Part shown: positions 8,446 through 58,348 of the stretch, one piece after another
Position numbering within the stretch: the stretch's first letter is position 1
How the letters are laid out: each line of letters opens with the position of its first letter
Assembly: GCA_036725605.1 (NCBI GenBank)
Contig: DAIMDW010000021.1
Location: forward strand, 28,044-92,043
Origin: a bacterium
GTDB lineage: Bacteria > Lernaellota > Lernaellaia > Lernaellales > Lernaellaceae
Direction of reading: 5' to 3'
Length of the DNA: 64,000 bases
Translations under genes and position numbers: made by a program
Notes under the pieces: generated by a model
What the model was told of the DNA's origin: nothing
The model's database searches: none
The model's input: the letters and a program-made list of their open reading frames with translations, nothing else

Positions 8446-8449
8446 TGCG

Positions 8450-36310: not shown

Positions 36311-36320
36311 ATCACTGCGG

Positions 36321-36480: not shown

Positions 36481-36483
36481 TAG

Positions 36484-37002: not shown

Positions 37003-37012
37003 GACGACCTCC

Positions 37013-37591: not shown

Positions 37592-37603
37592 GATATGCTC
37601 CTG

Positions 37604-38628: not shown

Positions 38629-38644
38629 TATCGTATCCTCCGTG

Positions 38645-39388: not shown

Positions 39389-39402
39389 GGCTGTCTCCTT
39401 CG

Positions 39403-43238: not shown

Positions 43239-43306
43239 ATGGAACAGTTGCGGGGTGGAAACTTCCATTATTTACCCTTGCCCTCCTCATGGGGGAGCAA
43301 TATTCT
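43239..43306 (+). promoter_or_regulatory. Operator motif copy 2 plus promoter TTGCCC-N17-TATTCT
   Basis: ATGGAA CAGTTGCGGGGTGGAAAC TTCCAT; the -35/-10 pair is identical to the one near 55799. Confidence 0.65.
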
Positions 43307-43332
43307 GGATCAAGCTGGAGAAAGGCGAGATC

Positions 43333-43467
43333 ATGAGAAAAGTGATTGCACTGATTCATCGGATGGCAGCGGAACGATTTTTCGGAAGCGTTACGCTCCG
43401 TTTCGAGAACGGCCGAATCCGGCACATAAAGATCGAGCAGTCTTTACAGACAAGCGACTTTTCATGA
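43333..43467 (+). CDS. YezD/DUF2292-like small protein, copy 1
   Basis: FFGSVTLRFENGRIRHIKIEQS. Confidence 0.65.
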   Translation: MRKVIALIHRMAAERFFGSVTLRFENGRIRHIKIEQSLQTSDFS

Positions 43468-43521
43468 CGGCAGACAAACGACAACAAGAAAAAAGGAACC
43501 ACAGTTAACCCGTAATTTCGG

Positions 43522-43676
43522 GTGACAATTCGTTTTCTTTTGGGGTTGTCGAAAAAATCGAGCCCCGGCGAAGCGGAAGGCAAAGCCTTCACATGGCCCT
43601 ACGAGGTAATCGGAAGAACCGATCCCGCGTTGGACCGAAGGCGAGGTCCTTCCGTTTCGGCGGGGCTTTTCTTTTT
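43522..43676 (+). promoter_or_regulatory. Terminator/antiterminator leader ahead of primase B
   Basis: GGGG-TTG-TCGA-AAAAA-TCGA-G-CCCC hairpin overlaps the 5' arm of a 20-bp stem ending CGGGGCT-TTTCTTTT. Confidence 0.6.
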
Positions 43677-43688
43677 GAGGGGGTCGCA

Positions 43689-46600
43689 GTGCACGAAAAG
43701 GAAAAATGCGTTCAACTTCTGCTTAAGGATTTTCTCACAAGGCGGGACGTTGTCGCGGCGCGGCAGCAGTGGCAGGACCGCCGGAGTAGAGAGTGGATTT
43801 CCAGGCCTCGCCCGGTTAAAGCCGGCCCACAATTGGAGAGTTTGGTCGCCTTCCATGTCTATGGACCGGAGGGACGCAAGGCACCCCCATTAAATTACAT
43901 CAATAACAAAACCGGGGCTCTCGTTGCCGATGGCCGTGGCTTTGACCGCTTGGGTGCTTATGCCGTCACACCGGACAATAAATGCGGGTGGCTTTGTCTT
44001 GATTTTGATGGTCCGGGCCATCCGCTGCCTTTAGCTGACCCGACGGCCACGATGCTTGCGTGCGTGGAACGCTGCCGCGCTTTGGGCGTCCCCAGCCACA
44101 TCGAGATGTCCGGCAGCGGCCATGGTTGGCATCTCTGGGTGTTTTTCGAAAACCCGGTGCCGGCCTCTGATGCGCGGTTGCTCGGGCATCGTGTCGCACC
44201 CACGGATCATCTGCTCGTCACCGGCGAGCCCGCCGATATCCGAACAGGGCGTGGGATCGAATGCTTCCCGAAGCAGAACACGGTCAGCGACAAGAAAATC
44301 GGCGCGGGCAACATGGTCTGGCTGCCGCATTGGTTTGGAGCAATAGGCGGGGGAAATCAATTCCATCGGTTCACGGACGAAAGGATTCTCGCCCCGTATT
44401 TACCTGACGAGTTCGAACGACTACCGGTCGAGCGGCTCCAGGACATCCTCACCCAGGTGCCCGACGATATTAGGCACTTCGTGCTAAAAACGAAGGATGG
44501 ACTAAAGGCCCCGTCGGCTCCGAAAAGTAGTCCACACGCTGCGTCCACCAACTATGCGCCAAGCGACACTCAGATGATCCAGGCGGCACTCGATCACATC
44601 TCGCCCGACGTTTCCTATGACGACTGGCTTCGTATCGGCATGGCACTTCACCACTGGGACGCGCAGGCGGGGCTTTCCCTTTGGGACGCCTGGAGCGCAC
44701 TCGGCGAGAAGTATGTGGATGGCGAGCCTCCGCTCAAGTGGGACGGATTCACATCCGGCGGCGGCGTCACACTCGGCACCCTGTTCGATATGGCAAAAAA
44801 AGCGGGTTGGACCTCACCCGTTCATAAACGGGTTCCGCTGCCAAGTGACGAAGAGATCAACGATTTTATTGACGTTGACCCATCCGCATTGCTCGATGGA
44901 GCGGCTTTTAAACGAACGATCAACGCTGAAACCGCTCTTTCTGGTTCGGACGGGATCACAGTTTCAGATAGAAAGCGATTGCCGGTCATTATCGTCAATA
45001 ATCGAACCGGTCCTGCACTGATCGAGGAAGCTTGGGCGGCGATTCGTGCTTCCAATTATCCACCGCGAATATTCCAACGGAATGGCGCATTGGTCCGACT
45101 CACGATGAATACGGACCCTCCGAAAATCATCCCCATGAATTTCGTCTCCATGTATGGCCTTTTATGGCGGGTTGCCAATTGCGTCGTCGATGCCAACGAC
45201 ATGCAGAAGTCGGTCAACCCGCCCAAAGATCTGGCTAGCGACATGCTGGAGTATCCCGACCCAACGTTACCCCACCTCGATGCCGTCGTCTCCACGCCGG
45301 TCTATGATCGCGAGGGCAATCTTGTTCAAGCGCCCGGGTATCACCGAACCGCTCGGCTCTGGATGCATATCGCGCCCGGAACATTGCCATATGATGTTCC
45401 GACCAAACCATCAGACGCACAGATCGCCGAAGCCGTTGCTCTTCTCAACAACGAACTATTTGTCGATTTTCCGTTCACCTCGCAGTCCGGCCGTGCTCAT
45501 GCCGTGGCCGCTCTGTTGCAGCCTTTCATCCGGCGGATGGTCGATGGGCCGACCCCCATGTATTTGCTGGAGTCGCCGAGCCCGGGCACCGGAAAAACCC
45601 TTCTCGCGAAAGTCATCTCCAGAATTGTGCTCGGCAAGTCTGTCAACGCGGCAAGCCTCGATCTGGATGAGCAAGCTATCGCGAAAAAGATCACGGCCAT
45701 TCTTCTGGGCGCACCGCAGGTCGTCCTAATCGACAACATCAATGTTCGCACTGGTCTCAAGTCGGCCGCTCTGGCCGCCGCAATGACCGCCGAACCTTAT
45801 TCCGAACGCGTTTTATACCAACCCGGCATGACGGAGCTTCCCAACCATGCGTTGTGGCTTATCACGGCCAACAATCCGAGCATGTCCCTGGAGATTGCCC
45901 GCCGCTGTGTCAGCATACGCATCGACGCGCGACACGACCGACCTTGGCGTCTGCATGGATTCAAGCACGAGCCGCTGGATGATTGGGTGGTAGAAAACCG
46001 TGCGGCCTTGATCACGGCCATTCTCACCATCGTGCGTGGCTGGATCGTCGCGGGGCGGCCGTCGGGAAAATTGACCTTCGGTTCCTTTGATTCATGGGCC
46101 CGCATTACCGGTGGCATTCTTCAGTTCTCAGGCATTCCCGGATTTCTTTCCAACCTCGAAGACCTGTACGAAGCAGCGGACACCGAAGGTGGGGAATGGC
46201 GCGAATTCGTCGCCGCGTGGTGGAGCAAATTCGGCGGGCGGGTTGTACCTTTTGCGGAACTGTTGGACCTCGCCAATGAAAAGGGCTTGCTCCCATCCGT
46301 CGTCGGCGATCAGGGATCGCGCGCGCAAAAGACACGGCTCGGCCGCGCCCTCAGCGCCATGAGGAATAGGCAGTTTGATTCCTATCGAATTGTGCAGCGA
46401 AGAAACAGCCATACGAAGCAATCCGAATACACGCTGGAAGAGGTAAACGCCGACGACCAACGCATACCGCATGGAATGGCTCCGGTCCTGCCGCTTTTTG
46501 CGGGTGATCGTCAGCCATCGAGCGCATCATCCGCAATATCGTCCGCGAAAAATAATTCTAAAAATCAGCCAGTTGCGGATGATGCGGAAGATGCGGAAGA

Positions 46601-46802
46601 CATTTCCAATTTGCTGGATAACGAGGGCGATAAAAAAGGGATGGAGGGGGTATATGAGAACAATAGAGGGCTATCATCCGCATCAACCGCAAACGTAGAA
46701 ATTCATCAGCACAATCAGCAAGTTAGCCATGCGGAGGATGATTCGAGATTATCTCCGGCATCATCAGCGGATCTCGCCGACTTCGAACCTGAGGAGGATT
46801 AA
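43689..46802 (+). CDS. Replication protein: AEP (TOTE-type) primase + PriCT-2 + NTPase/helicase, unit B
   Basis: WLCLDFDG, GWHLWVFF, SYDDWLRIGMALH, SPSPGTGKT; collinear with primase A but lacking the wHTH/iteron insert; GTG start after GAGGGG. Confidence 0.85.
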   Translation: MHEKEKCVQLLLKDFLTRRDVVAARQQWQDRRSREWISRPRPVKAGPQLESLVAFHVYGPEGRKAPPLNYINNKTGALVADGRGFDRLGAYAVTPDNKCGWLCLDFDGPGHPLPLADPTATMLACVERCRALGVPSHIEMSGSGHGWHLWVFFENPVPASDARLLGHRVAPTDHLLVTGEPADIRTGRGIECFPKQNTVSDKKIGAGNMVWLPHWFGAIGGGNQFHRFTDERILAPYLPDEFERLPVERLQDILTQVPDDIRHFVLKTKDGLKAPSAPKSSPHAASTNYAPSDTQMIQAALDHISPDVSYDDWLRIGMALHHWDAQAGLSLWDAWSALGEKYVDGEPPLKWDGFTSGGGVTLGTLFDMAKKAGWTSPVHKRVPLPSDEEINDFIDVDPSALLDGAAFKRTINAETALSGSDGITVSDRKRLPVIIVNNRTGPALIEEAWAAIRASNYPPRIFQRNGALVRLTMNTDPPKIIPMNFVSMYGLLWRVANCVVDANDMQKSVNPPKDLASDMLEYPDPTLPHLDAVVSTPVYDREGNLVQAPGYHRTARLWMHIAPGTLPYDVPTKPSDAQIAEAVALLNNELFVDFPFTSQSGRAHAVAALLQPFIRRMVDGPTPMYLLESPSPGTGKTLLAKVISRIVLGKSVNAASLDLDEQAIAKKITAILLGAPQVVLIDNINVRTGLKSAALAAAMTAEPYSERVLYQPGMTELPNHALWLITANNPSMSLEIARRCVSIRIDARHDRPWRLHGFKHEPLDDWVVENRAALITAILTIVRGWIVAGRPSGKLTFGSFDSWARITGGILQFSGIPGFLSNLEDLYEAADTEGGEWREFVAAWWSKFGGRVVPFAELLDLANEKGLLPSVVGDQGSRAQKTRLGRALSAMRNRQFDSYRIVQRRNSHTKQSEYTLEEVNADDQRIPHGMAPVLPLFAGDRQPSSASSAISSAKNNSKNQPVADDAEDAEDISNLLDNEGDKKGMEGVYENNRGLSSASTANVEIHQHNQQVSHAEDDSRLSPASSADLADFEPEED
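46527..46781. repeat. TCCGC/GCGGA iteron-like repeats in the 3' end of primase B
   Basis: About 8 copies, e.g. GCGGATGATGCGGAAGATGCGGAAG. Confidence 0.5.
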
Positions 46803-46806
46803 AGCC

Positions 46807-47133
46807 ATGAGACAAATCAGTCTTGCCCGAGCCCTGAACATCCCGCAGCGATTTGCGGAGGAAATCTACCAGGATCTGGTCAAGGACAACAGCGGCGTCG
46901 AGCGTGAAATCTGGCGGAGCTTCTCCCGGATGAAACTTCAGCGGGAGATTTACCTGCGTCAATACTCCGGCCCACGCGGCGGATATGACAAGTGGATCGG
47001 TTTAATGCTGGAAGAAACCGTCAGGGACCTTATCGAAAAATTCATCACAGGCGAAGCGGTCCCCCGGGGTAACTGGGATCCCGACGAGTGGGAACGTCGC
47101 CTGCGGCAGGAAGCCGAATGGAGGCATTCGTGA
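46807..47133 (+). CDS. Hypothetical protein
   Basis: GAGGAGG SD; coupled to the next gene by GTGA overlap. Confidence 0.65.
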   Translation: MRQISLARALNIPQRFAEEIYQDLVKDNSGVEREIWRSFSRMKLQREIYLRQYSGPRGGYDKWIGLMLEETVRDLIEKFITGEAVPRGNWDPDEWERRLRQEAEWRHS

Positions 47134-47432
47134 TTTTGCCCTATCGCAAAGCGTCGGAAGTCTTACCGGAGGAATTGGTCGCGGAAATCCACAAATACTT
47201 TCGCGGCGGATGTCTCTATGTTGCACACCGGAAAAACGTGAACCGGATCAAGCGTGATTTGACGATCATCGCCATGCGTCGAGAAGGCCGAACCGTCACC
47301 GAAATCGCCGAATGGTTCCTGCTTTCAAGGCGTGCTGTACGTTACATCTTGCAAAAAGCCGCAGCGCGAAGCGCGGCTTCTCCGGAAAACATTGAAACCT
47401 CATCCTCCAATACCATAAGGAGTCACTCATGA
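47130..47432 (+). CDS. Mor/CD3324-like transcription activator
   Basis: Y.KASEVLPEELVAEIHKYFRGGCLYV; homolog of 28620. Confidence 0.75.
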   Translation: MILPYRKASEVLPEELVAEIHKYFRGGCLYVAHRKNVNRIKRDLTIIAMRREGRTVTEIAEWFLLSRRAVRYILQKAAARSAASPENIETSSSNTIRSHS

Positions 47433-47989
47433 ACACCAATCAGAATTTGCCCGATGATCAGGACTACGTGAATAGTTTCGGTCGCCATGTCCCGCGATGT
47501 ACCGCCCGTATGAAGAAAAACGGGCGGCGCTGCACGCTCCCGGCTGTGACGGGATATGAGGTCTGCCGGATGCACGGGGCCAATTTGAAAAACAAAGGCG
47601 GAGGGCAGCCGGGCAACCTCAACGGGATGAAGCACGGCGCCTATGTGAAGCGTCTGCTCGATGACAGAGATCGGCAATTGTTCGACGAAATGCTCGAGGC
47701 AATCCGCCGCGACTTCGAACTCAACAACTCGACAGACCAGCTTCAAGCTTCAATGGCATCGTTTTATTTCACGCGATGGATACGCGCCGTGGAGGGCAAT
47801 GCCGATGCGGCCATCGCGCATTTCGACCTTTTGATGCGCAAGCAATTCGAGTCGCTGAAAGTCATGCGGGTCCAGCGCGATTCAACCAGTGGTCCGCAGA
47901 CAACGCCAGCGGAATGGGCGGTCGCGCTTCTGGAAAGCGTGTGTGGCGGCGCGTCCGGCAAGCCGTCCAAGGACAAGCCGAGGGACTGA
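47429..47989 (+). CDS. HGGxSTG-domain protein (TerS-like), copy 3
   Basis: RCTAR..K.GRRC..PAV.G..VCRMHG, GNLNGMKHGAY. Confidence 0.78.
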   Translation: MNTNQNLPDDQDYVNSFGRHVPRCTARMKKNGRRCTLPAVTGYEVCRMHGANLKNKGGGQPGNLNGMKHGAYVKRLLDDRDRQLFDEMLEAIRRDFELNNSTDQLQASMASFYFTRWIRAVEGNADAAIAHFDLLMRKQFESLKVMRVQRDSTSGPQTTPAEWAVALLESVCGGASGKPSKDKPRD

Positions 47990-48120
47990 TGCGCCGAAAA
48001 CGCGAAAACAATCGCGTGGAAGTCGTCAGCAGCGGTCGCCGTAAGTCGGCGAAGTTGCGCGAGTCGGCCTTCGGCCAAATCGCAGATAAGACGTGTTCTG
48101 TGAGGCGCAAGCCGGGCGGC

Positions 48121-49005
48121 TCAGATGCTTTCGAGTGCGTCCTCGAGGTCATCGTCGGTGATGTGGGCATAGACCTGGGTGGTGGTGACGCGGGAGTGGC
48201 CGAGTGCTTTGGCGACCAGCAGCAGATTCTTTGTGCGGCCATAGAGCAGCGTGGCGAAGGTGTGGCGCAGTCCGTGGACGGTGATCTTGCCGTCGAGCTC
48301 GGCCCACGTGAGCCAGAGCCCCATTCGCTCCTGGACCTGGCGGGTGCTGATGCGCCGGTTGCGATTCGAGAGAAAGAGTGCGTCGGTCTCGGCCAGTATC
48401 TTACGGCGGCGCTGGATGTACTTGCGCAGGACGCCGCGAAGCTCGGTGTTCAAGAATCGCACCTGGGGCTTGCCGCCCTTGGTGCGCCTGATGCGCAGCT
48501 GCTTCTGGTCGAGGTGAACATCGCCAATGTCCAGACCGACCAGTTCCGCCAGGCGAATGCCGGTGCCGAGCAGGACGCGCAGCATGACCAAGTCACGGTC
48601 GGCGGTCTCGCCTTTGCGCGCGGCGACCGCCTTGAGGAGTGCCTTCACTTCGGCGGGCGAGAGAAAAGACGGCGCTTCCCGGTCATAGCGCTTGATCTTG
48701 ATCCATGCTGCGGGATTGCGCCCGGCTATGCCCACGTTGGCCACGTAGCACCCGAAGCTGCGCAGGCAGGCTTTGATACGTCCCAGGCTCGCTTCGCCAC
48801 GGGGGGCGCCCGTGTGCGTCGTGGTCACCGGCGTGGACAAAAGGAAACGCGCCAGCAGATCCGCGTTCAAGGTCGACGCCTCGATGTCGCCCGCGAAGGC
48901 GAGCAGCAGGCTGAGGTCGCGGCCGTAGCAGCTGAGGGTGTGCGGGCTTTTTCCCTCAGCCTCTAACTGCGTGAGAAACTGGGAAATGGCAGTGGAAAGG
49001 TTCAT
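48121..49005 (-). CDS. Tyrosine recombinase (XerC/D-like integrase), unit B
   Basis: GIRLAEL, TKGG, HGLRH, LGH, TQVYAH; collinear with 26848. Confidence 0.93.
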   Translation of the reverse strand: MNLSTAISQFLTQLEAEGKSPHTLSCYGRDLSLLLAFAGDIEASTLNADLLARFLLSTPVTTTHTGAPRGEASLGRIKACLRSFGCYVANVGIAGRNPAAWIKIKRYDREAPSFLSPAEVKALLKAVAARKGETADRDLVMLRVLLGTGIRLAELVGLDIGDVHLDQKQLRIRRTKGGKPQVRFLNTELRGVLRKYIQRRRKILAETDALFLSNRNRRISTRQVQERMGLWLTWAELDGKITVHGLRHTFATLLYGRTKNLLLVAKALGHSRVTTTQVYAHITDDDLEDALESI

Positions 49006-49008
49006 GGG

Positions 49009-49305
49009 CTACTCCTTCCCGGCCAGACCGAGCCGCCGGATGATTTCGGCCTTGTCCTCGGCGGGGAAGTCGATCCGGTCCTTGAGGTAGCTCCAGGCGC
49101 TTTCGTGAAGATTGCCGTCGGAGTCGAAGATCGCCTCGCGGATAAGCTCAACCGCCTTTTCAATCTCAGTCTCCCGGTTACAGTCGGCCCGTTCCAATTG
49201 CTCGATGGCGATGCTCAGTGCCTCGGCCTCGTCTTGGGCAAAGACGGTCTCGGCCGCCCGTTTTTGTTTCGCCTGCAGCACCTTGATGGCTTGCTTGAAG
49301 TTCAT
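49009..49305 (-). CDS. Helical hypothetical protein (homolog of 26563)
   Basis: MNFKQAIKVL...HESAWSYLKDRIDFP. Confidence 0.8.
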   Translation of the reverse strand: MNFKQAIKVLQAKQKRAAETVFAQDEAEALSIAIEQLERADCNRETEIEKAVELIREAIFDSDGNLHESAWSYLKDRIDFPAEDKAEIIRRLGLAGKE

Positions 49306-49307
49306 GG

Positions 49308-49535
49308 TCAGTCCTCCTTCTTCAATGGCACCAGGTCCTCGCGGCGGGCGTCGCTGGTGACCCAGGAGAACCGCTGGTCCTGCTCGATCCAGGGCGCGAC
49401 GTCCCACCAGCCCGTGGGGCGCTCGTTGTCGTCGAGGATCGGGGCGATCAGCTTCACTTTGAGTCCGGTCATGAAGGCGTGGTCGGTGCCCGTGTACCGG
49501 GCGATCATGCCGCGTTTAAGCCTGGGTTTCGTCAT
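49308..49535 (-). CDS. Small hypothetical protein (homolog of 26048)
   Basis: WWDVAPWIE...FSWVTSDARR. Confidence 0.75.
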   Translation of the reverse strand: MTKPRLKRGMIARYTGTDHAFMTGLKVKLIAPILDDNERPTGWWDVAPWIEQDQRFSWVTSDARREDLVPLKKED

Positions 49536-49686
49536 TGTCTTTCTCCTTGGCTTGAGTGTTCTGTTTTTCGAGAGCCGCCGCGATCCGCTCCAGCGCCGCG
49601 TTGAGCCGGGCCAGTTCTCGGGCGATGGTCGGCAAAGTGTGGTCGTAGAAGGTTCGCCCCATGGCCGTCTGAAAAAATTCAGGCAT
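49516..49686 (-). CDS. Small coiled-coil protein (homolog of 25867), not in the ORF track
   Basis: MPEFFQTAMGRTFYDHTLPTIARELARLN..., 56 aa, GGAGG SD. Confidence 0.75.
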   Translation of the reverse strand: MPEFFQTAMGRTFYDHTLPTIARELARLNAALERIAAALEKQNTQAKEKDNDETQA

Positions 49687-49701
49687 TCCGTCCTCCTTGG
49701 G

Positions 49702-50016
49702 TTACGCGGGTTTGCGGATAACCATGCCCTGGTCGTCGCACTCGACGACGCGGTAAGCCAGGCGGGTGCGGCCGCTGGCGGCGTGCTGCCACATGATGAG
49801 CCCCAGTTCATGGTCCACGATGGCTGTGCCGGGATGCCGCTCGTATTCGATGGAGTCTTCGACCTCAGCCTGGTAGTCGGCGGCGATGCCGAAAATTTCG
49901 AATTCGGCGAAGTGTCCGCACCCGATGACGTTGACATCACCCAGCGAGCGCAGCGCCTCTCCGAGCGTATTGAAGGTTTGCCTGCGGGCGGTTTGTGCGT
50001 TGTTGCTGCCTTCCAT
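49702..50016 (-). CDS. Hypothetical protein unique to unit B
   Basis: GGAGG SD then ATG 50016. Confidence 0.6.
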   Translation of the reverse strand: MEGSNNAQTARRQTFNTLGEALRSLGDVNVIGCGHFAEFEIFGIAADYQAEVEDSIEYERHPGTAIVDHELGLIMWQHAASGRTRLAYRVVECDDQGMVIRKPA

Positions 50017-50178
50017 CGTGGCCTCCTTTCGGTTTTGGTTCTTCGTGCTCATGCGACGTACAGGGGCTTCGAAGCACATTAAAGTCAAGGTAAAACAACC
50101 ACTTATGCGAAGTTTTCCGGCCCGAAGAGAAGCGCCCCGCAAAGGGCGCTGGAGGTGGGAATTGGTCTGGGGCGGGCG

Positions 50179-50406
50179 TCAGGTGGTGGGCGTTTCCTCT
50201 CGAAAGCCTCGGAAGATTCCCTCGGCGTAGGTCTTGTGGTTGGCCTTGTCGGTCAGCCAGTAGGCGGCGTCGATGTGGCCAAGCTCCAGGGCGATGGCGG
50301 CGACGACCGGGCGATCCAGCATGTTGGTCCTTCCGCTTCGGCGCACGGCCTCGATGCCCTTGAGCACCTCGGGCGGGATGGCGACTTTGGCGCTTTGGTC
50401 CGTCAT
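50179..50406 (-). CDS. DUF5049-like small protein
   Basis: VLKGIEAVRRSGRTNML. Confidence 0.72.
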   Translation of the reverse strand: MTDQSAKVAIPPEVLKGIEAVRRSGRTNMLDRPVVAAIALELGHIDAAYWLTDKANHKTYAEGIFRGFREETPTT

Positions 50407-50409
50407 GGC

Positions 50410-50820
50410 TTACTCGGCGCTTTCGGCGGGTTCGGCCTCGGCGGTTTCCTTGACCCTGGCCAGTTCCTCCTTGGGCAGCGGCACCTTGTCCGTCCATCCC
50501 TGGTCCTTGCAGTACACCAGCATTTGGCGGAACACGCGCTTGGTCTGAGCAATGGTGTGCGGGCTGCGCGGGCGCTCGGTGCGCGTTTCACCCTCTTTCT
50601 TGGGTTCGCGGATCAGCTTGTTGACCGCGTCGCTCTTGAAAAAGGCAGAGACGTGGACGGGCAGAATCTTGGCGATATCCTTGCCCTCGCCGAAGTGGGC
50701 GACGGCCAGGTCCAGGTGCCGTCCGTAGGTGATGACGGTGCGCTCGTTCTTGCCGAGTTCGGTCAGATGGGCGACGTACTTTTCGGCGGCTTCCTTGATC
50801 GTGGTGGTCTTTGTGGTCAT
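50410..50820 (-). CDS. Stand-alone integrase N-terminal SAM-like domain protein
   Basis: Close homolog of 25066. Confidence 0.72.
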   Translation of the reverse strand: MTTKTTTIKEAAEKYVAHLTELGKNERTVITYGRHLDLAVAHFGEGKDIAKILPVHVSAFFKSDAVNKLIREPKKEGETRTERPRSPHTIAQTKRVFRQMLVYCKDQGWTDKVPLPKEELARVKETAEAEPAESAE

Positions 50821-50838
50821 GAGTGGCTCCTTGTGGGT

Positions 50839-51048
50839 TTATGGTCTTTCGACCGGGTTGACTTCGCACAGGGTCCAGCCGTTGAACGACTGGCCGATCT
50901 CTTCGGGCTTCCAGTTGGCTCTCGCCTCGATCCGCGCCAGCGTTTCGTAGGCTTCGGCGATGCTGACGAAGGGGCGCATGCTCCGTTCGTTCAGCGTCTG
51001 GCCGAGGATCGCGCCGGTGTCGAGGTTGGTCAGGATGTAACGCGCCAT
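50839..51048 (-). CDS. Small hypothetical protein (homolog of 24622)
   Basis: MARYILTNL...WTLCEVNPVERP. Confidence 0.8.
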   Translation of the reverse strand: MARYILTNLDTGAILGQTLNERSMRPFVSIAEAYETLARIEARANWKPEEIGQSFNGWTLCEVNPVERP

Positions 51049-51371
51049 GTCTTTTCTCCTTTCGATTCAGCAGCTTACGACGTGTCACATCGCTTCGTGT
51101 GGCGGGCAAGTCAAGGGCTTTTTTCACCGGAAATCGAGACTCTACAGCCCGGCGGCCGGGGGCGCGGTCAAAGTAAACGGTGGAGTGGTGTAATGGTGAT
51201 GATAGTGCAGAAGGAGCCATATCATTTCCTTCGTCAGAATTGCAGCCTTCAGAATGCTGAAAAACCAGATGGAACGTATCGGCCATTTATGCAAAATGAT
51301 CCGACAAGTTAAAAATATCGCTGAAAGCTGTGTTGCAAGTATCAACAACTTGAAATTCGGAGAAGCTGACA

Positions 51372-52643
51372 ATGGGGGTTACCCGAGAAAAGCTCTACAA
51401 GGAAGTCTGGGCCGAACCGATGATCACGGTCGCGGCCCGATACGAGGTTTCTTCCAGTTTTCTCGCCCGGGTTTGCACTCGGCTGAGAGTGCCACGACCC
51501 GAACGAGGATACTGGGCCAAGCTCAAAGTCGGGAAGGCACCGCCGCAACCAGCCCTACCGCCTGCCCAACCAGGTGACGAATTGGAATGGTCACGGGACG
51601 GTAATCCACAGAGATTGCCCCCGGCGCTGCCCCGTCCGCCTGCGTCCACTCGCCGAAAACGTCCATCACCCGCACCTGCCGAACGATCTTCACATCACGC
51701 TCTCTGCACGGGTGTCCGTGAATTTTTTGAAGTCGACCGCGTTTCGGATGCTGGGCATCTCCGTCCGACCAAGCAACTCCTGGTCGATCTTTTCGTGACC
51801 AAGGAACTGCTCGCGCATGCGCTGGACACTGCGAGCCGCCTATTCTTTTTTCTGGAGGATCATCGGCATCGGGTTGTCATCGCTCCTCATGCCGAAGGCC
51901 TCCATCGTCCGAGACTTGACCCAAAGGAACCAATTGAAAAGGAGGAATCTTATTGGAAGACCTGGAGTCCATGCCGTCCGACCGTGACGTACATCGGCTC
52001 CGTCGCCATCGGGCTCACAGTCTATGAATTGAGCGAGAAGGTGGAGGCTCGATACCACAACGGGAACTATATCCGGCTGGATCAGTTGCCTCCCACGCGC
52101 CGAACATATCGTGCTCCCTCATACGAATGGACAACCAAGCATGAGTTCGCCACGGGCCGCCTCGCGGTGCGAGCCTTCTCACCATATCCTGGAACATCAT
52201 GGGAACAGTATTGGTGCGAGAAAACGCCAGGGACTTTGCCGGACCTCTTTGGAAAAATCGAACGGGGGCTCAGGCACGCGGCGCCTATCATTGCCAAAAT
52301 GGTGGAAGTACAGCGCCGGAAGGAAGAGGAAGCTCAACAACGGTGGGAGGAACAGCATCGGGAATGGGAGCGCCAGGAAGCGGTACGGCGGCAGCAAGCG
52401 GAAGAAAGGCGCCGCCAGGAGGCGTACAGAACAAGCCAAGATCAACTCCTGAAACTGGCCGAGACCTGGGCGCGGGCCTGCCGTCTTGAAAGTTTCTTTG
52501 AGAGATTGACCGTCGAGGCGGCGAATCTCGACGAAAATGAACGGGAGATCATCACGATCCGCCTGGAACGCGCACGCAATATGCTCGGTGGAACATCAGC
52601 GCTTTCTCACTTCCGCACATGGAAGTTGCCGGAGGAAAGCTAA
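51372..52643 (+). CDS. Hypothetical protein of integrative elements (N-terminal HTH-like)
   Basis: TREKLY.EVWAEP...VA.RY.VS...LA..C..L.VP.P.RGYWAK. Confidence 0.7.
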   Translation: MGVTREKLYKEVWAEPMITVAARYEVSSSFLARVCTRLRVPRPERGYWAKLKVGKAPPQPALPPAQPGDELEWSRDGNPQRLPPALPRPPASTRRKRPSPAPAERSSHHALCTGVREFFEVDRVSDAGHLRPTKQLLVDLFVTKELLAHALDTASRLFFFLEDHRHRVVIAPHAEGLHRPRLDPKEPIEKEESYWKTWSPCRPTVTYIGSVAIGLTVYELSEKVEARYHNGNYIRLDQLPPTRRTYRAPSYEWTTKHEFATGRLAVRAFSPYPGTSWEQYWCEKTPGTLPDLFGKIERGLRHAAPIIAKMVEVQRRKEEEAQQRWEEQHREWERQEAVRRQQAEERRRQEAYRTSQDQLLKLAETWARACRLESFFERLTVEAANLDENEREIITIRLERARNMLGGTSALSHFRTWKLPEES

Positions 52644-52845
52644 AATACGATAAATTGTGACTTGGCCGCAGCGTCTTCGGTTGCAAACAGGGTTTCGATA
52701 TTATCCTGCGAAACACAGAGGAATCCGGTGATCGCCTGGACTCGTCGTAGCAATCGACGGTCACCTCCTCGATCATCTCCTCAAACCGCTTCGTCGAAAT
52801 CTTTGGGTTTTTTCTCTTAGTCTGTTTAATGGTCGTTTTCGGCAT
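52630..52845 (-). pseudogene. Frameshifted remnant of a CcbP-like (calcium-binding family) small protein
   Basis: MIEEVTVDCYDES continues as (E)AITGFLCVSQDNIETLF only after a one-base frameshift. Confidence 0.45.
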
Positions 52846-55415
52846 TAGTCCTTCTCTGATTCAATCCCGCCTGAATATCCTTGCTCGTCATCGAAAATCA
52901 GTTCCGTTTCAAATGGGTTCGAGTCGGCCGGCGCGTCTTCGCAGGTGTAGCCGATCGCGCGGTAACCGCGCAGCCTCCGTTCGAACATCTTGAGCGCCAC
53001 AGGAACATCCCGGTCCACATAATCGTAAATCCGCACCTCGACCTTGCCGGGATGAAGGCGGTGGAGACGACCGGCATACTGTACGAGAGTTCCTTTCCAT
53101 GAAACCGGCAGTGCGAGAAAAAGCGTGTCCAGACGCGCGTCGTCGAACCCCTCGCCGATATATCTTCCCGTGGCCAAAAGGAGCCGTTCTTCTCCATCGG
53201 GAATGGCGGCGAGTTGTTCCAGCGATTGCCGACGCTCCCGCGTCTTCATTCCGCCGTGAAGGACGACGAGGTTGCGCGTGAATTTCCGCAAGCGCTCCGC
53301 GAACCACTCGAGGTGGTCGCGCCGCTCTGTGAGGAGGATCGGGGAACGCTTGTCCTCCAGCGCCCGGATCACGTCGTCAAAAATCATGCCGTTGCGACGC
53401 GAATCAGCGGCCAACGCCGCATACAGATTTTGAATTCCAGCGTCTTCGGCCAGAGCAACTGGCTTAAAATTTGTTTCCCGTACGAGGAGTTTATAATCGA
53501 ACGGGCACCTTGTTGATGGACATCTCGAATCGACGGTGAAACGAACCGGCCCGATCTGCATGCCGATGATGGGGTGCAACCCGTCGCGTCGATAGGGAGT
53601 CGCTGTCAGCCCTGCGATAAAGCGGGCTTTCACCTCCGACAGCACGCGCTCAAATGAGACGGCAGGGGCATGATGGCATTCATCGATTATGACCTGTCCA
53701 TATCCTGCAACGATATCCTCCACCTCTCCCTTGCGTACCAAGCTCTGCAGCATCGCCACGTCCAGATGCCCGTTCGGTTTTTTTACTCCTGTTCCGATGC
53801 GACCGATTGCTTTCGTGTCCTTACCGAGAAATAAGGCCAATTGAGCAATCCACTGTTCGAGCAGCGGCTTGCGATGAACGAGGATCAGCGTGCTACAGCA
53901 TCGAGCAGCAACGAGATACGTCCCGACCACCGTCTTCCCAATGCCCGGCGGCGCCACAAATACACCCGTGTCATGAGCAAGGAGATTCTTTACAGCCTCT
54001 TCCTGGATCGGCGTGAGTGTTCCCTGAAAACTCGATTCGAACGGCGTTCCACTTTGGCGCAAATCCTCGATGTTCAATGACGCACCGTGCTCGTTAAGCA
54101 GGGCTTCGATGTTGGATAAACATCCACGCGGCAGCGAGATGTGCTCCGGCAGTTCTTTGAAGCAAGCGATGACGCGGGGAGTAAGCGCGGTCGAGAACCG
54201 CAAACTTTGCCTTTTATAAAACTCCGGATTCTGGAACGCGGCCGCACGCTTGATCCGGTTGATCAATGCGGACGGCAGCCCTTTCTTTTCGATGAACAAT
54301 CGTTGCGCGATGACCGCATTGATATTGGAGGGAATCGGTTCCTCAATGGCAATTTTCTTTGGTTTCTTCGAAGGAGTGCGGTTCCACGGAGACCGCTCCT
54401 CGTCACTCAATGGATCGCTCAGGCGAACCCCAATCACCTGCCCGCGCCGGACCGCTTCTTCCGCCAGGGTCTGCACGGATGACGGGTCAAGACGCCGCAG
54501 GTTCGCCAGGAACGACCATTGATCCGGGAATTCGATGAAGTTGTCATCGACGAAAACGGAGTTGCCGCTATCTCTGGCCTGACGTTGCAGGGGCATAGCG
54601 ATCAGGTTACCGAATCCGCCCTTCGGCATGGTGTCCTGATTCGGAAAAAGACGGTCGTAGGATTCCATCGAAAGCTGGTGACGCCGAGCCATCGTCTCCG
54701 TAATGAGAAAGCAGGCCATTTTACGCGCTGCGGCCGCGAGAATCGGAGCGGAAAAGAAAATCCAGGCGTGGGCCCCGTTTCCAGATCGCGACCGCTCAAT
54801 GGCGACGGGAACATCGCGCGTCTTGCAGGTCTCAGCAAACGCATGGACATCTTCCTGCCAGGACTTTTTGTCGAAATCCGCTGCGAGAAAGCGGCAGGTT
54901 TCGTCCGGCAGAAGCGGATAGACCCCCATGATTTGCTCGCCGCGAAGATGATTGGCAATCTCCTCATCGGTTACGGGCAGGAATGCCTGATTTGCGCATT
55001 CGCTACATGTCGCTCTTGGTTTTCTACCGCCAGTTGCGCCTTTCTTCTTCTCGCACAAATCCAAATCCCACTCGTTGGCGCAAGCTGGAGAATAACCGGA
55101 CCTGCCGGTTTTCGGGTTGTCCCATCGACGAGGAAACACATCCTCCCGCCCGCGAAACAATGAACGGAATAAAATGACTTTTTCCGCGTTCGTCGCCGGC
55201 ACGGGCAATGTCTGGGGAAATGCCGACGACAGTGGAATGGCCAATTGCCCCGGCGCCAAGGTGCTCAGTTCTTGTCTGAGGGCGGCAAGTCGCTCGGTCT
55301 GCTCGGTGATCTCCGAGCGCAATTCCGCAATCCTCTTTTCGGATGCCTCGATTTCTGATTGCAGTTCTTCGTAGCGGGATTTCGACTCTTTCATCTTTTC
55401 ATCATAGACGAGCAT
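52845..55415 (-). CDS. TOTE-type AEP primase domain fused to a DEAD/DEAH (SF2) helicase
   Basis: LFRGREDVF..RW, GVYPLL.D..C.FLAADFD, ERSRSGNGAHAWIFF, APPGIGKT, IDECHH, GLTATP, GEGFDDARLDTL, QYAGRLHR. Confidence 0.88.
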   Translation of the reverse strand: MLVYDEKMKESKSRYEELQSEIEASEKRIAELRSEITEQTERLAALRQELSTLAPGQLAIPLSSAFPQTLPVPATNAEKVILFRSLFRGREDVFPRRWDNPKTGRSGYSPACANEWDLDLCEKKKGATGGRKPRATCSECANQAFLPVTDEEIANHLRGEQIMGVYPLLPDETCRFLAADFDKKSWQEDVHAFAETCKTRDVPVAIERSRSGNGAHAWIFFSAPILAAAARKMACFLITETMARRHQLSMESYDRLFPNQDTMPKGGFGNLIAMPLQRQARDSGNSVFVDDNFIEFPDQWSFLANLRRLDPSSVQTLAEEAVRRGQVIGVRLSDPLSDEERSPWNRTPSKKPKKIAIEEPIPSNINAVIAQRLFIEKKGLPSALINRIKRAAAFQNPEFYKRQSLRFSTALTPRVIACFKELPEHISLPRGCLSNIEALLNEHGASLNIEDLRQSGTPFESSFQGTLTPIQEEAVKNLLAHDTGVFVAPPGIGKTVVGTYLVAARCCSTLILVHRKPLLEQWIAQLALFLGKDTKAIGRIGTGVKKPNGHLDVAMLQSLVRKGEVEDIVAGYGQVIIDECHHAPAVSFERVLSEVKARFIAGLTATPYRRDGLHPIIGMQIGPVRFTVDSRCPSTRCPFDYKLLVRETNFKPVALAEDAGIQNLYAALAADSRRNGMIFDDVIRALEDKRSPILLTERRDHLEWFAERLRKFTRNLVVLHGGMKTRERRQSLEQLAAIPDGEERLLLATGRYIGEGFDDARLDTLFLALPVSWKGTLVQYAGRLHRLHPGKVEVRIYDYVDRDVPVALKMFERRLRGYRAIGYTCEDAPADSNPFETELIFDDEQGYSGGIESEKD

Positions 55416-55758
55416 CTGACCGAGGGGAAATCAATCTTCAGTTGTATTTGATCTCCTGACGATTGATGACGATCTAGTTCGTGGCAGTTTTGAATTCCTC
55501 AGCGAACGAATAGAACGTCAAACAGCGTAAACGCAGTTTCTGCAATAAATCTTCCATCGTTTCACCCAACAATATTTCGAAACTGTGTGGCCCGGTTCCA
55601 TGCAAACCAGGATCGCTGTCGCATCTTTTTCCCAAAAATTTGCACACCTCTGAACTTGCCCTTTAAGAAACGTCCCCATATTCTGCCCATATGAGTTGGA
55701 CGGCGAGCGCGACTCACACTCGTTGAACGAAGCAAGGAGGAATGGACCGGATTCCGGG

Positions 55759-55827
55759 GGTGGAGGAAATGCAGGGTGAAAACTTCCACCAAATGAACTT
55801 GCCCTATCAGAATCTGGCCCATATTCT
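55759..55827 (+). promoter_or_regulatory. Operator motif copy 3 plus promoter TTGCCC-N17-TATTCT
   Basis: GTGGAG GAAATGCAGGGTGAAAAC TTCCAC ... TTGCCC TATCAGAATCTGGCCCA TATTCT. Confidence 0.65.
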
Positions 55828-55833
55828 GCTCTC

Positions 55834-55974
55834 ATGAAAAAGCTGTTCGTATACATCGAAATGCTCATGGCGCAAGGATTCTTCGGAACCCTGAAGCTGA
55901 GTTTCCAGAACGGCAAACTGTGCAACATCAAGGTCGAACGGAGCATCAAGCCCGGGGATCTGCCTTCGCCGTAG
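55834..55974 (+). CDS. YezD/DUF2292-like small protein, copy 2 (not in the ORF track)
   Basis: MKKLFVYIEMLMAQGFFGTLKLSFQNGKLCNIKVERSIKPGDLPSP, homologous to 43333. Confidence 0.7.
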   Translation: MKKLFVYIEMLMAQGFFGTLKLSFQNGKLCNIKVERSIKPGDLPSP

Positions 55975-55993
55975 GCTACGGCAAGACAGGCCT

Positions 55994-56083
55994 GTGACAA
56001 TCGCGTAAATCTTCGGGGTCGTCGAAAACATCGAGCCCCGGTGAAGTTGGGATGAAACACACCCGCTTCGCCGGGGCTTTTTT
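55994..56083 (+). terminator. Intrinsic terminator with overlapping antiterminator hairpin
   Basis: AGCCCCGGTGAAG...CTTCGCCGGGGCT-TTTTT 13-bp stem; competing GGGG-TCG-TCGA-AAACA-TCGA-G-CCCC. Confidence 0.7.
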
Positions 56084-56211
56084 AGTTGAGAAATGAGACA
56101 GGAGTCCGAGCCACATCCAAAGCAAACCTCATATAGGAGAAATTGATTGTTAATCCAATTTAACATTTTCCGACGTTGTCACTTGAGGCAGCGGTTCCAT
56201 ATTCCGGCATC

Positions 56212-56391
56212 ATGAAGCGCAAAGACACCATCTCCGAAGTCGCCGAAATTCTGGCCACGGCCATCGTTCGAAAGCGTCTGCGCGATGTGCATAACATACT
56301 GAAAACGAACGGCAAAACAGAGATTGGCCTTGAGGTTTCGTCTGGACAGAGCCTTCATCCTGTCGAACCGAAGAGAAGGAGAAAGAAATGA
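56212..56391 (+). CDS. Small hypothetical protein preceding DUF2924
   Basis: EVAEILATAIVR.R.R; 4-nt overlap with DUF2924. Confidence 0.6.
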   Translation: MKRKDTISEVAEILATAIVRKRLRDVHNILKTNGKTEIGLEVSSGQSLHPVEPKRRRKK

Positions 56392-56843
56392 CGGATACGG
56401 CTCTGAAGCAGATCGCGCAGATCCAAAAGCTGCCGGTCGAAGCTCTGCGCGAAAAGTGGGAGGTGTTGTTCGGAACGGAGGCCCCGGCGTACAGCCGCCC
56501 GTTTCTGGTTAAGCGCCTGGCATACCGAATCCAGGAATTGGCCCACGGCGGCCTGTCGCAGCAGACGCGGGAGCGCGTCCAGAAAATCGCGGAAGACAAT
56601 GGCCTCGACGAGATGGCTGCGTTACCGCAGGGACAACCTAAGAAAAAGGGAATGCCTGTCGTCGGAACGCGCCTGATCCGCGAATGGAACGGTGGCCGCT
56701 ATGAGGTCATCGTGGTTCGTGACGGGTTTGAATTCGAAGGAAAGAAATACCGCTCGCTGACCGCAATTACCAAGGTCATCACCGGCACACATTGGAACGG
56801 CCCGGCCTTTTTTGGATTGCGTCAAAACGGAAAAGCTAAATGA
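56388..56843 (+). CDS. DUF2924 family protein
   Basis: L.KRLAYRIQELAHGGL, GTRLIREWNG...EV.V...GFEFEG..YRSLTAI...ITGT.WNGP.FFGL. Confidence 0.9.
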   Translation: MTDTALKQIAQIQKLPVEALREKWEVLFGTEAPAYSRPFLVKRLAYRIQELAHGGLSQQTRERVQKIAEDNGLDEMAALPQGQPKKKGMPVVGTRLIREWNGGRYEVIVVRDGFEFEGKKYRSLTAITKVITGTHWNGPAFFGLRQNGKAK

Positions 56844-58348
56844 AAAATGGAAAGGAAACACCTCCGAACACTCTGACTCCAAAAGTCCGCTGTGCGATCT
56901 ACACAAGAAAATCGACCGAAGAGGGATTGGACCAGGAATTCAACAGCTTGGACGCGCAGCGCGAGGCCTGCGAATCCTACATCGCCAGTCAGCGCAGTGA
57001 GGGGTGGGTGGTATTGCCCGACCACTACGATGACGGGGGTTTCTCAGGGGGCACGCTGGAGCGCCCGGCGTTGCGGCGACTGCTCCAGGACATCGAGGAT
57101 CGCTGCGTCGATTGCGTGATCGTGTACAAGCTCGACAGACTCTCTCGCTCGCTTCTCGATTTCACAAAGATCATTGAAATTTTCGAGCGCCAAGGCGTGA
57201 CCTTCGTTTCGGTCACACAGCAGTTCAATACGACCACATCGATGGGGCGCCTCACGCTGAACATCCTTCTTTCGTTCGCACAGTTCGAGCGTGAAATCAT
57301 CGGCGAGCGGATCCGCGACAAAGTCGCCGCCTCGAAGCGCAAGGGTAAGTACATGGGCGGCATGCCGGTGCTGGGCTATGATGTGGACCGCCTGGCCAAG
57401 AAGCTGGTGGTCAACCCGATCGAGGCGAAACTCGTGCGCCATATTTTCAAGCGCTTCACGCAGATCGGCTCGGCGACCTTGCTGGCAAAGGAATTGAACC
57501 AGCAGGGGCATCGGACCAAGGAATGGGTCACAAAAAAGGGAACGACTCACGCAGGTGTCGCCTGGAACAAGATGCACCTCTACCGGATGTTCAACAACCG
57601 GCTATACATCGGCGAGATCGTCCACCACGATCAGCACTATCCCGGTGAGCACGACGCTATCGTCCCGAGCGCCTTGTTCGACCAGGTCCAGTCCATCCTC
57701 GAACAGAATTGCCGCGTCCGTGGAAACAAAACCCGAGCCAAGACACCCGCGCTGCTCAAGGGCATCCTCAAATGCGGTCACTGTGGCGGATCGATGGGGC
57801 CGACCTTCGCCAAGAAAAACGGCAAGACGTACCGCTACTACCTTTGCGTCGCGGCTTCCAAGAACGGGTATGACTCCTGCCCGGTGCGGACAGTAGCGGC
57901 AGGGGAGATCGAAAGTGCGGTCATGGAGCAACTCCGCGCCGTGTTCCGTTCGCCGGAAATGATCGCGGAAACATACCGTGCCGCGCGCTTCCAGGAAAGG
58001 GAGCAAGTTTCGGCCCTCGAGAGCGAGCGCATGGAACTGGAGGTCAAGCTCGCCGGTAACCTCGTTCAGACTGAAAAACAGGAATTCCAAAGCCGCGTCC
58101 ACGAGATCAACCGCATGATTCGCGGACTCGACAAACACGCCCTCGATGAACTTCAGGTCGCCGAAGCTCTGAACCAACTCGATCCGATCTGGGACGAGCT
58201 TTTTCCCGCCGAACAAGCGCGGATCGTGCAGCTGCTCATCGAGCGCGTGGTGGTCAACCCGGACGGCATCACCGTGCGATTCCGGTTGGACGGTTTGAGC
58301 ACCATCGCGGCGGAATTTGAAGCAGACGAGGAGGCTGCCAATGAATAA
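56840..58348 (+). CDS. Large serine recombinase (resolvase + recombinase + Zn-ribbon domains)
   Basis: AIYTRKSTEEG (catalytic Ser), YKLDRLSRS, LSFAQFEREIIGERIRD, CGHCG...YYLC. Confidence 0.95.
   Translation: MKNGKETPPNTLTPKVRCAIYTRKSTEEGLDQEFNSLDAQREACESYIASQRSEGWVVLPDHYDDGGFSGGTLERPALRRLLQDIEDRCVDCVIVYKLDRLSRSLLDFTKIIEIFERQGVTFVSVTQQFNTTTSMGRLTLNILLSFAQFEREIIGERIRDKVAASKRKGKYMGGMPVLGYDVDRLAKKLVVNPIEAKLVRHIFKRFTQIGSATLLAKELNQQGHRTKEWVTKKGTTHAGVAWNKMHLYRMFNNRLYIGEIVHHDQHYPGEHDAIVPSALFDQVQSILEQNCRVRGNKTRAKTPALLKGILKCGHCGGSMGPTFAKKNGKTYRYYLCVAASKNGYDSCPVRTVAAGEIESAVMEQLRAVFRSPEMIAETYRAARFQEREQVSALESERMELEVKLAGNLVQTEKQEFQSRVHEINRMIRGLDKHALDELQVAEALNQLDPIWDELFPAEQARIVQLLIERVVVNPDGITVRFRLDGLSTIAAEFEADEEAANE

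Follow-up and report, generated by a model that had tools for sequence, protein, structure and literature searches.

Two copies of a tiny gene with an RNA hairpin and an overlapping terminator in a prophage-like region suggest a widespread candidate attenuator cassette of uncultured phages

Introduction

Which function can be assigned to an element that occurs twice in a stretch of 64,000 nucleotides (nt) of bacterial DNA (contig DAIMDW010000021.1, positions 28,044 to 92,043, in the following the window, at its full length) and that consists, in each copy, of a small open reading frame (ORF), a short RNA hairpin, H1, and a terminator-like hairpin, T, which uses one strand of H1? A first reading of the DNA, here called the original prediction, had taken the two copies for a repeated attenuator, in which a YezD-like ORF is followed by mutually exclusive antiterminator and terminator hairpins, one copy gating a primase and the other a serine recombinase gene, and had drawn an analogy to the satellite P4.

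As judged from comparative sequence analysis, the repeats are copies of a widespread, hitherto undescribed cassette of uncultured phages, composed of a tiny protein gene, an RNA hairpin and an overlapping terminator, which most likely decides on the transcription of the downstream genes. With respect to the mechanism, the reading favoured here, to which we assign a probability of roughly 0.45, is that the small protein binds H1 and acts as an antiterminator.

Results

Two copies of the element in the window

The duplicated element was found where it had been predicted, as a 27-nt core, GGGGTYGTCGAAAAMATCGAGCCCCGG, has exactly two occurrences in the window (43542-43568 and 56015-56041), against none expected (100 shuffles). 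The following components are arranged around the core.

43333..43467, plus strand: small ORF 1, 44 amino acids (aa), of the FFG-x-V-x-L-x-F-x-N-G-K family (divergent DUF2292-like)
43509..43522, plus strand: P0-like small hairpin CCCG-UAAUUU-CGGG, 5' of H1, from the minimum free energy fold
43522..43529, plus strand: GTGACAAT box, copy 1, able to pair with GGUUGUC of H1
43542..43566, plus strand: H1 hairpin, copy 1, GGGG-UUG-UCGA-AAAAA-UCGA-G-CCCC, fold of -10.4 kcal/mol
43562..43676, plus strand: long terminator T, copy 1, with stem 43562-43666 and T-run 43667-43676, the first 5 nt common with H1
43605..43626, plus strand: H1'-like hairpin GG-UAA-UCGG-AAGAA-CCGA-U-CCC at the apex of terminator 1
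55834..55974, plus strand: small ORF 2, 46 aa, family member
55994..56001, plus strand: GTGACAAT box, copy 2, in ancestral stop-codon context, pushed away by the palindrome insert 55968-55982
56015..56039, plus strand: H1 hairpin, copy 2, GGGG-UCG-UCGA-AAACA-UCGA-G-CCCC, covariance-model match of 68.6 bits
56035..56083, plus strand: terminator T, copy 2, with stem 56035-56077 and T-run 56078-56083

Structure and conservation of the RNA

In both copies H1 follows the pattern GGGG-UYG-UCGA-N5-UCGA-G-CCCC with a folding energy of -10.4 kcal/mol each, and its GCCCC also opens a long hairpin which is closed by GGGGC and followed by the T-run, whereby the CCCC (43563-43566 and 56036-56039) has two alternative partners, the upstream GGGG and the 3' GGGG of the terminator. 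T, with energies of -64.8 kcal/mol in copy 1 and -30.9 kcal/mol in copy 2 (folding z-scores of -5.0 and -3.1, respectively), is a G+C-rich stem-loop with a U-tract directly after it, and a matching 3' arm plus a T-rich tail accompanies all unique family members (68/68). From this architecture we infer that T terminates transcription and that H1 competes with it. When the full T is set against H1 plus a truncated T, T is favoured by only about 5 kcal/mol in both copies, although the sizes of T differ two-fold.

A covariance-model search, as the original prediction had proposed, recovered within the window only the two copies, with 68.6 bits (copy 2) and 26.3 bits; matches on the minus strand reflect the palindromic stems only. 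Rfam 15 gave no match at the sites at gathering threshold, nor at E <= 10 over 43000-44000, with the cobalamin riboswitch alone scoring elsewhere, and together with the conservation in a family this upholds the claim of an undescribed cis-regulatory RNA with a shared strand. The second, similar hairpin noticed inside the first terminator could equally be confirmed at 43605-43626; it is kept in relatives as GG-NNR-UCGG-N5-CCGA-G-CC, where, compared with H1, the stem UCGA/UCGA has changed to UCGG/CCGA with pairing maintained. The long terminator type is conserved in the loci L120, L134, L290, L264 and L258 (L numbers denote loci of this analysis).

In an alignment of 49 unique sequences (A3), T is paired in 91.5% of the cells and shows double changes in 7 of its 12 pairs, a score that was reached by 0 of 500 shuffles. 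H1 is paired in 97.7% of the cells and is nearly invariant, and the alignment is therefore uninformative on H1 either way. An additional scan, which allowed transitions in the upper stem of H1 while the base of T was fixed, delivered 65 unique instances with extended T and U tail. The upper stem reads UCGA/UCGA in 52 of those and UUGA/UCAA, a compensated change, in ten, with UUGA/CCAA (2/65) and UCGA/CCGA (1/65) as rare forms, while the single changes UUGA/UCGA or UCGA/UCAA do not occur (0/65). The compensated UUGA/UCAA copies have varied T stems and differing downstream genes. Since the C-G to U-A change is compensated in ten instances, the uncompensated UUGA/UCGA and UCGA/UCAA combinations are absent and the H1' copies carry UCGG/CCGA, the upper stem of H1 is real.

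In H1 the loop is freely variable (AAAAA, AAACA, GGAAC, GUCAC and others), in contrast to the G's on either side of the UCGA stem and the GGG/CCC runs, which do not vary; sites recognised by a specific partner typically show such a pattern. The base of T (GCCCCGG/CCGGGGC), unlike that of generic terminators, is unusually conserved in sequence, which fits the double constraint on a CCCC strand that has to pair with two partners. In most relatives a P0 hairpin directly adjoins H1. As known motifs, a K-turn and a CsrA-type GGA loop were considered for H1 and rejected, as tandem G-A pairs are absent and the loop is unconserved, respectively.

The small protein and its linkage to the RNA

The ORFs located 5' of the RNA form one protein family with the consensus ...LEKLAxxGFFGKVxVSFQNGKVCDIKIEQTKKLDEL and 474 relatives at E <= 1e-3, whose members are about 45-60 aa long and, by sequence, net basic. 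The designation 'YezD-like' holds for the relatives rather than directly for the window ORFs: the latter had no matches in Pfam, NCBIfam and PHROGs, while relatives match PF10055 (DUF2292/YezD) at or near its gathering threshold of 22 bits, namely P0045 with 24.6 bits, P0011 with 21.9 bits and P0001, which is 87% identical to small ORF 2, with 14.4 bits. The small protein can be regarded as a divergent, borderline branch of DUF2292/YezD, a family without assigned function or described associated RNA with which it has the size and a helix plus beta-hairpin pattern in common, whereas it travels with H1-T; a profile of the more YezD-like phage relatives failed to reach the canonical YezD proteins. 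The AlphaFold2 (AF2) model of the small ORF 2 protein consists of a helix and a beta-hairpin at a predicted local distance difference test score (pLDDT) of 94, and proteins identical to the small ORF 2 product are encoded in two metagenome loci (L177, L178). Sequence conservation and the model both indicate a real protein that is conserved like a folded domain.

A first pattern scan had found the RNA in metagenome-assembled genomes of Myxococcota and in an unclassified 'bacterium' lineage (one genome per species), with tighter patterns used in place of a loose initial genome scan, which consisted almost only of chance matches in high-GC genomes. To assess how protein and RNA are linked, searches of genomes, viral contigs and metagenomes were made with the protein alone, so that the RNA played no part in ascertainment. 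The RNA motif is present 17-101 nt past the stop codon in 96 of the 107 protein-found loci, and in three of the exceptions it is located 1-2 kb away; among the loci without H1-T are five remoter, more YezD-like phage relatives, L172-L176. Searches of cultured-phage GenBank records by protein and DNA gave no match, and nothing relevant was found in the literature on DUF2292/YezD and phage antitermination. No gene other than the small ORF accompanies H1-T through all of its settings, in late and early regions of phages as well as at chromosomal riboswitch loci. The suggestion that the upstream protein reads the RNA is on these grounds, and with ORF-less sites occurring on ORF-bearing contigs, the best-fitting one, the RNA binding itself being the conjectural part.

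A distant member of the family, L172 (IMGVR_UViG_3300038954_000444; FYGKLVLSFENGKIV), has, about 20-70 nt past the small ORF, a hairpin CGGG-AACAA-CCCG that abuts a hairpin GCUCCUG...CAGGAGC. This pair resembles H1-T in architecture, with other sequence and without a U-tract, and may be a diverged H1-T.

Genomic settings and copies without the small gene

The cassette was found in three settings. Phage late regions have the order large terminase, small ORF (overlapping the terminase stop), H1-T, two small genes and portal, with an AEP-TOTE primase (AEP, archaeo-eukaryotic-type primase) nearby. Phage early or regulatory regions of the window's clade have a divergent gene of 78 aa, a promoter, the small ORF and H1-T, followed by a DNA methyltransferase or primase gene. 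On Myxococcota chromosomes, six loci (L001, L121, L130, L141, L151 and L152) show a cobalamin riboswitch, the small ORF, H1-T and a gene for a lipoprotein of the YVTN-type beta-propeller kind, presumably BtuG-like. The latter order makes regulatory sense only if the product of the small ORF, or its translation, promotes read-through, and the cassette would here be a relay between the cobalamin riboswitch and its operon.

The idea that H1-T is itself a riboswitch, for a small molecule or an ion, appears most improbable in the light of these settings, as six copies already stand behind a cobalamin riboswitch and the controlled genes, encoding primase, DNA methyltransferase, portal, prohead protease, baseplate and a B12-related lipoprotein, are unrelated in function. 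The two-state architecture, the small energy gap and the invariant nucleotides around the internal loop would suit such a sensor, but the candidate aptamer measures only about 25 nt with a freely variable loop and has no match in Rfam.

Where the cassette ends, the next gene begins: in copy 1 and nearly all relatives the U-tract is separated from the next start codon by 10-25 nt, which hold only a ribosome-binding site (RBS), and because of this short distance and the lack of a promoter of its own the next gene can be transcribed only by read-through. Furthermore, 22 of the 75 unique instances with enough upstream sequence are ORF-less. Twelve of the 22 are located at most 90 nt from a TTGAC-N16-19-TAnnnT promoter, usually behind a variable P0 hairpin, and ORF-less copies directly precede prohead-protease-like, tail or baseplate-J-like genes. 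All three multi-copy phage contigs examined (3/3) also hold an ORF-linked copy; the 64.7-kb contig IMGVR_UViG_3300035113_000078, for example, has three sites (L269, L293 and L427).

For the window, the sequence upstream and downstream of the two copies comprises the following.

43256..43267, no strand assigned: palindrome TGGAAACTTCCA, 5' of small ORF 1, candidate operator or promoter element
43278..43306, plus strand: promoter-like TTGCCC-N17-TATTCT preceding small ORF 1, consensus match only
43690..46802, plus strand: primase-helicase gene (AEP, PriCT-2, AAA; Pfam), GTG start with RBS GAGGGGG, 14 nt past the T-run
55777..55788, no strand assigned: degenerate palindrome TGAAAACTTCCA, 5' of small ORF 2, repeat D6
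55799..55827, plus strand: promoter-like TTGCCC-N17-TATTCT, 6 nt from its end to the ATG of small ORF 2, consensus match only
56176..58348, plus strand: unit downstream of copy 2, with promoter-like site, 59-aa ORF, DUF2924 gene and large serine recombinase gene
56176-56203, plus strand: promoter-like TTGTCA-16-CATATT between T copy 2 and the 59-aa ORF
56212-56391, plus strand: 59-aa ORF, 3' of copy 2
56388-56843, plus strand: DUF2924 gene, 3' of the 59-aa ORF
56840-58348, plus strand: large serine recombinase gene, 3' of the DUF2924 gene

The primase most likely starts at the GTG at 43690 and not at the ATG at 43593, which lies inside the terminator; the context of the GTG start is kept in L120. 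Copy 1 adjoins the primase gene; copy 2 does not directly abut the recombinase gene, from which it is separated by the promoter-like site, the 59-aa ORF and the DUF2924 gene.

With this arrangement, two further explanations can be judged. T might be an ordinary, possibly partial terminator of the small gene, with H1 serving 3'-end stability, processing or autoregulation and the downstream genes being expressed by constitutive leak-through. This is unlikely: ORF-less copies have no upstream gene to end and are placed behind a strong promoter and ahead of essential structural operons, the base of T is sequence-conserved in agreement with a double constraint on the CCCC strand, and the gap of about 5 kcal/mol is found in both window copies despite the very different sizes of T. 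In its favour, T has every feature of an intrinsic terminator, the switch is hypothetical, and a promoter-like site follows T in window copy 2.

Alternatively, the promoter-P0-H1-T units and the 3' ends of the small-ORF mRNAs might be trans-acting small RNAs (sRNAs), stand-alone or derived from the 3' untranslated region, with H1 as the seed. The ORF-less units do resemble sRNA genes of about 100 nt with promoter, structured body and terminator, several sibling copies of which occur per phage; nevertheless this proposal is very improbable, as the conserved part is base-paired and not single-stranded, the next gene follows within 10-25 nt without its own promoter, making read-through obligatory, and no complementary targets were seen. 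A DNA site of the pac or att type was also considered and rejected, since it leaves the covarying terminator and the riboswitch loci unexplained.

A palindrome TGGAA(N)TTCCA lies in or beside cassette promoters, in the window at 43256-43267 and 55777-55788 and also in L124, L271, L293, L422 and L427. As TGGAAGTTCCA it sits in the promoter spacers of ORF-less phage copies, and in Myxococcota phages it fills the spacer up to the -10 element of TTGACA-N17-TAnnnT promoters, whereas the riboswitch loci are without it. It is likely an operator or a factor-loading site of these phages.

The promoter-like TTGCCC-N17-TATTCT box of small ORF 1 recurs at 55656 and 55799 (repeat D5). Promoter-like boxes of the type TGAACTTGCCC-N17-CATATTCTG form a tandem duplicate 143 nt apart, at 55651-55694 and 55794-55837, and are found also at 43278-43306 and 56198-56206; the first tandem box (55651-55694) precedes an 11-codon ORF only. 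In these boxes an ATG is located 6-7 nt 3' of CATATTCYG, a proximity which suggests that transcripts, including that of small ORF 2, may be leaderless.

The GTGACAAT box and coupling to translation

The original prediction had included GTGACAAT in the element, yet the box is not part of the family core, as Myxococcota-type copies are without it; it may be a clade-specific third element. In relatives of the window's clade, the small ORF terminates at the TGA of the box (at TAA in L120), while in both window copies an insertion parts the real stop, which is located 23-57 nt 5' of the box, from it. In copy 2, the offset is 44 as compared with 21 in relatives, owing to the palindrome insert at 55968-55982. 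This inserted palindrome, GCCGTAGGCTACGGC, holds the current stop codon of small ORF 2, lengthens its protein by PSP compared with relatives and has shifted the ancestral TGA-CAAT 23 nt downstream; L160 and L177-L180 have the same insertion.

The position of the box raises the question whether the ribosome itself operates the switch, in that, halted at the stop codon, it covers the GACAA box, which would otherwise pair with the 5' half of H1, with the consequence that H1 forms and T does not. In many window-clade relatives, the ORF ends at the TGA within TGACAA, which precedes H1 by 17-21 nt; moreover, copy 1 shows pairing of GACAAUU with GGUUGUC (z = -3.4), and the order riboswitch, small ORF and T would be accounted for. 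Such coupling is quite improbable, since the distance from the stop to H1 varies from 17 to 101 nt, the upstream pairing is not general (mean z of 0.16), the real stops of the window copies lie 5' of the box, ORF-less copies work without any ORF, and the protein sequence is conserved like a folded domain. An anti-antiterminator pairing by the box was discarded because it is not general (duplex mean z of 0.16, copy 1 alone -3.4). Discarded as well were a stimulator of stop-codon read-through or frameshifting, as the downstream frame is not joined to the next gene and Myxococcota copies use other stops and spacers, and a boxA of the rrn or lambda type, with which only a 6-mer is shared, in one clade only.

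Surroundings of the copies in the window

The window looks prophage-like around the element. Prophage-like traits are a recombination module at 33.8-40.5 kb, two AEP primases, a weak small-terminase-like ORF, and the DUF2924 gene with the serine recombinase gene. The module (33864-40494, minus strand) is of a phage-type recombination/replication kind and encodes a RecD2-like helicase, an ERCC4 nuclease, a DUF669 protein, an AAA_24 (Sak4-like) protein and a PD-(D/E)XK nuclease; after it, at 41230-41991, follows an AbiEii-like gene. With this module and the AbiEii-like gene, the prophage-like region extends beyond the cassettes.

Two different archaeo-eukaryotic-type primase genes are present in one element, at 43690-46802 (plus strand) and 52845-55415 (minus strand). 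The first combines PriCT-2 with an AAA helicase, the second a strong AEP-TOTE match with a fused helicase of superfamily 2 (ResIII/DEAD), and the two genes are convergent around about 6 kb of ORFs without family matches. In the operon 3' of copy 1, the ORFs 47088-47432 and 47429-47989 weakly match the Mor family of transcription activators (E = 0.004) and PHROGs of small terminases (E of about 1e-5).

Distant from both copies, a full-length cobalamin riboswitch (113 bits; 8126-8317, plus strand) precedes genes for two paralogous secreted proteins without assigned function (8372-10048 and 9849-11024), the second of which ends in a long poly-Asp tract. Unlike the Myxococcota loci, this riboswitch is not followed by a small ORF or H1-T.

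Discussion

Proposed mechanism

In the mechanism considered here, the default fold of the leader RNA would be the intrinsic terminator T, which halts transcription just before the next gene. The 25-nt H1 (GGG-UYG-UCGA-loop-UCGA-G-CCC) would take the CCCC that forms the base of T, and, once H1 is closed, T would lose five G-C pairs beside the U-tract and RNA polymerase would read through. The small protein would bind or lock H1, in cis as well as at other H1-T sites of the same phage that are without the ORF, and in this way be the antiterminator, so that downstream modules are licensed only after the small ORF has been translated. In the window this would apply to the primase operon and, in a less direct manner, to the unit of DUF2924 and recombinase genes; in related phages it would concern the operons for head, tail and baseplate, and in Myxococcota the lipoprotein gene under control of the B12 riboswitch. 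There, B12 would shut off the ORF, no antiterminator would be made and the uptake gene would stay off; the reverse polarity would be senseless for regulation.

A protein-dependent attenuator is favoured because it explains the co-inheritance of protein and RNA, the ORF-less promoter-proximal sites, the near-balanced energies and the order of riboswitch, small ORF and T, and none of the rival explanations accounts for the linkage of protein and RNA as well. Several observations weigh against it. The predicted covariation among homologs is strong for T and compensatory in the upper stem of H1, but the lower stem GGG/CCC, the part that competes with T, is invariant and without double changes, with the outermost pair open in 9 of 49 sequences. 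The switch itself is consequently without support by covariation, and of the predicted mutual exclusivity it is the common CCCC strand that stands, with the H1/T switch structurally plausible, but unproven. A PDB sequence profile and a Foldseek search with the AF2 model gave no significant match and no RNA-binding analogue of the small protein, and a few family members are without nearby RNA. Window copy 2 departs from the rule of a promoter-less downstream gene by the promoter-like site at 56176-56203, and, since this separate site follows its T, gating of the recombinase by copy 2 is uncertain.

Finally, that H1 does not vary in sequence could just as well be due to its recognition by another factor. 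In this case, the same switch would be read by an antiterminator that the phage encodes at another site, by a Nus-type factor of the host or, in the manner of HK022 put, by RNA polymerase itself, with the small protein unrelated or accessory. An invariant sequence with a free loop is expected for any specific partner, the position of ORF-less copies just 3' of promoters that share the spacer palindrome recalls the promoter-proximal loading of Q-type factors, and no RNA-binding fold has been recognised in the small protein. We nonetheless consider another reader rather unlikely, because the small ORF is the sole gene accompanying H1-T in all three settings and the palindrome is missing from the riboswitch loci.

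If the small protein is indeed the antiterminator, a first function would be assigned to one branch of a widespread orphan mini-protein family (DUF2292-like), and the timing of modules in a large group of uncultured phages, of Myxococcota and an unclassified lineage, would be revealed. A protein of about 45 aa, a 25-nt hairpin and a built-in terminator would be among the smallest protein-RNA transcription switches known, and a structured RNA family that Rfam misses would be added. The cassette is compact, which makes it directly testable and a potential genetic part, and its position behind a riboswitch suggests a general route for relaying translational signals to operon-wide control of transcription. 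As a possible, though doubtful, extension, divergent DUF2292-like mini-proteins might constitute a new class of RNA-binding antiterminators, each with its own 25-nt hairpin and terminator as a portable 'translation-to-transcription relay'. In phages, one gene and several ORF-less sites would then license the replication, head, tail and baseplate operons, and Myxococcota would have co-opted the cassette, turning a translational cobalamin riboswitch into transcriptional control.

Comparison with known systems

The closest architectural parallels are the ribonucleic antiterminators (RAT) of the BglG/SacY/LicT proteins and the ANTAR systems, where, as in H1-T, a conserved antiterminator hairpin, short and with an internal loop, shares sequence with the 5' arm of a terminator; there, protein binding stabilises the hairpin and one regulator serves several sites, as is proposed for the cassette. 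The cassette differs in that Pfam scans of the window genes revealed no CAT/PRD or ANTAR domain and that the Rfam models for the RNAs of these systems gave no match, and also by a candidate reader of about 45-60 aa with helix and beta-hairpin, an overlap of only 4-5 nt and the phage setting. In the Bacillus subtilis hut operon, the regulator gene comes first and is followed by an intrinsic terminator which its product must overcome, an order in which the cassette is alike. HutP, in contrast, is an unrelated hexamer that binds UAG repeats dependent on histidine, whereas the cassette has a specific hairpin, no indicated cofactor and portable multiple copies.

Among phage systems, lambda N-nut (boxB) and Q-pR'-tR' likewise combine a small basic phage protein and an RNA hairpin with terminators that head gene blocks and time their expression, and the short terminated leader behind the strong late promoter in the case of Q (6S RNA at tR') resembles the ORF-less copies. 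Compared with N-nut, no boxA is conserved across the family, a GNRA-like boxB and an arginine-rich motif are absent and the loop is unconserved; the adjacent terminator at each site suggests a local attenuator rather than the processive kind. In HK022 put, promoter-proximal stem-loops in the phage transcript affect termination, to which P0 and H1 may be comparable, but put is protein-free and processive on downstream terminators, while the cassette is defined by a co-inherited protein gene and a built-in terminator.

The analogy to P4 immunity (CI RNA, seqA/seqC) is restricted to premature termination before the primase operon of a mobile element, as is proposed for copy 1. P4 relies on RNA-RNA pairing of a processed leader RNA with the nascent transcript, while the repeats of the cassette are tied to a protein gene, are direct and identical instead of complementary, have no sequence similarity to P4 and lie in flanks that are prophage-like and not of a P4-type satellite; the analogy was therefore dropped. 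The cassette belongs to none of RAT/BglG, ANTAR, HutP and N-boxB, as the protein domains and RNA features that define them were looked for and not found. Its presumed kind, an attenuator with a factor-stabilised antiterminator, is known; new are the RNA motif and the candidate reader family, and unusual is the modular use in multiple copies.

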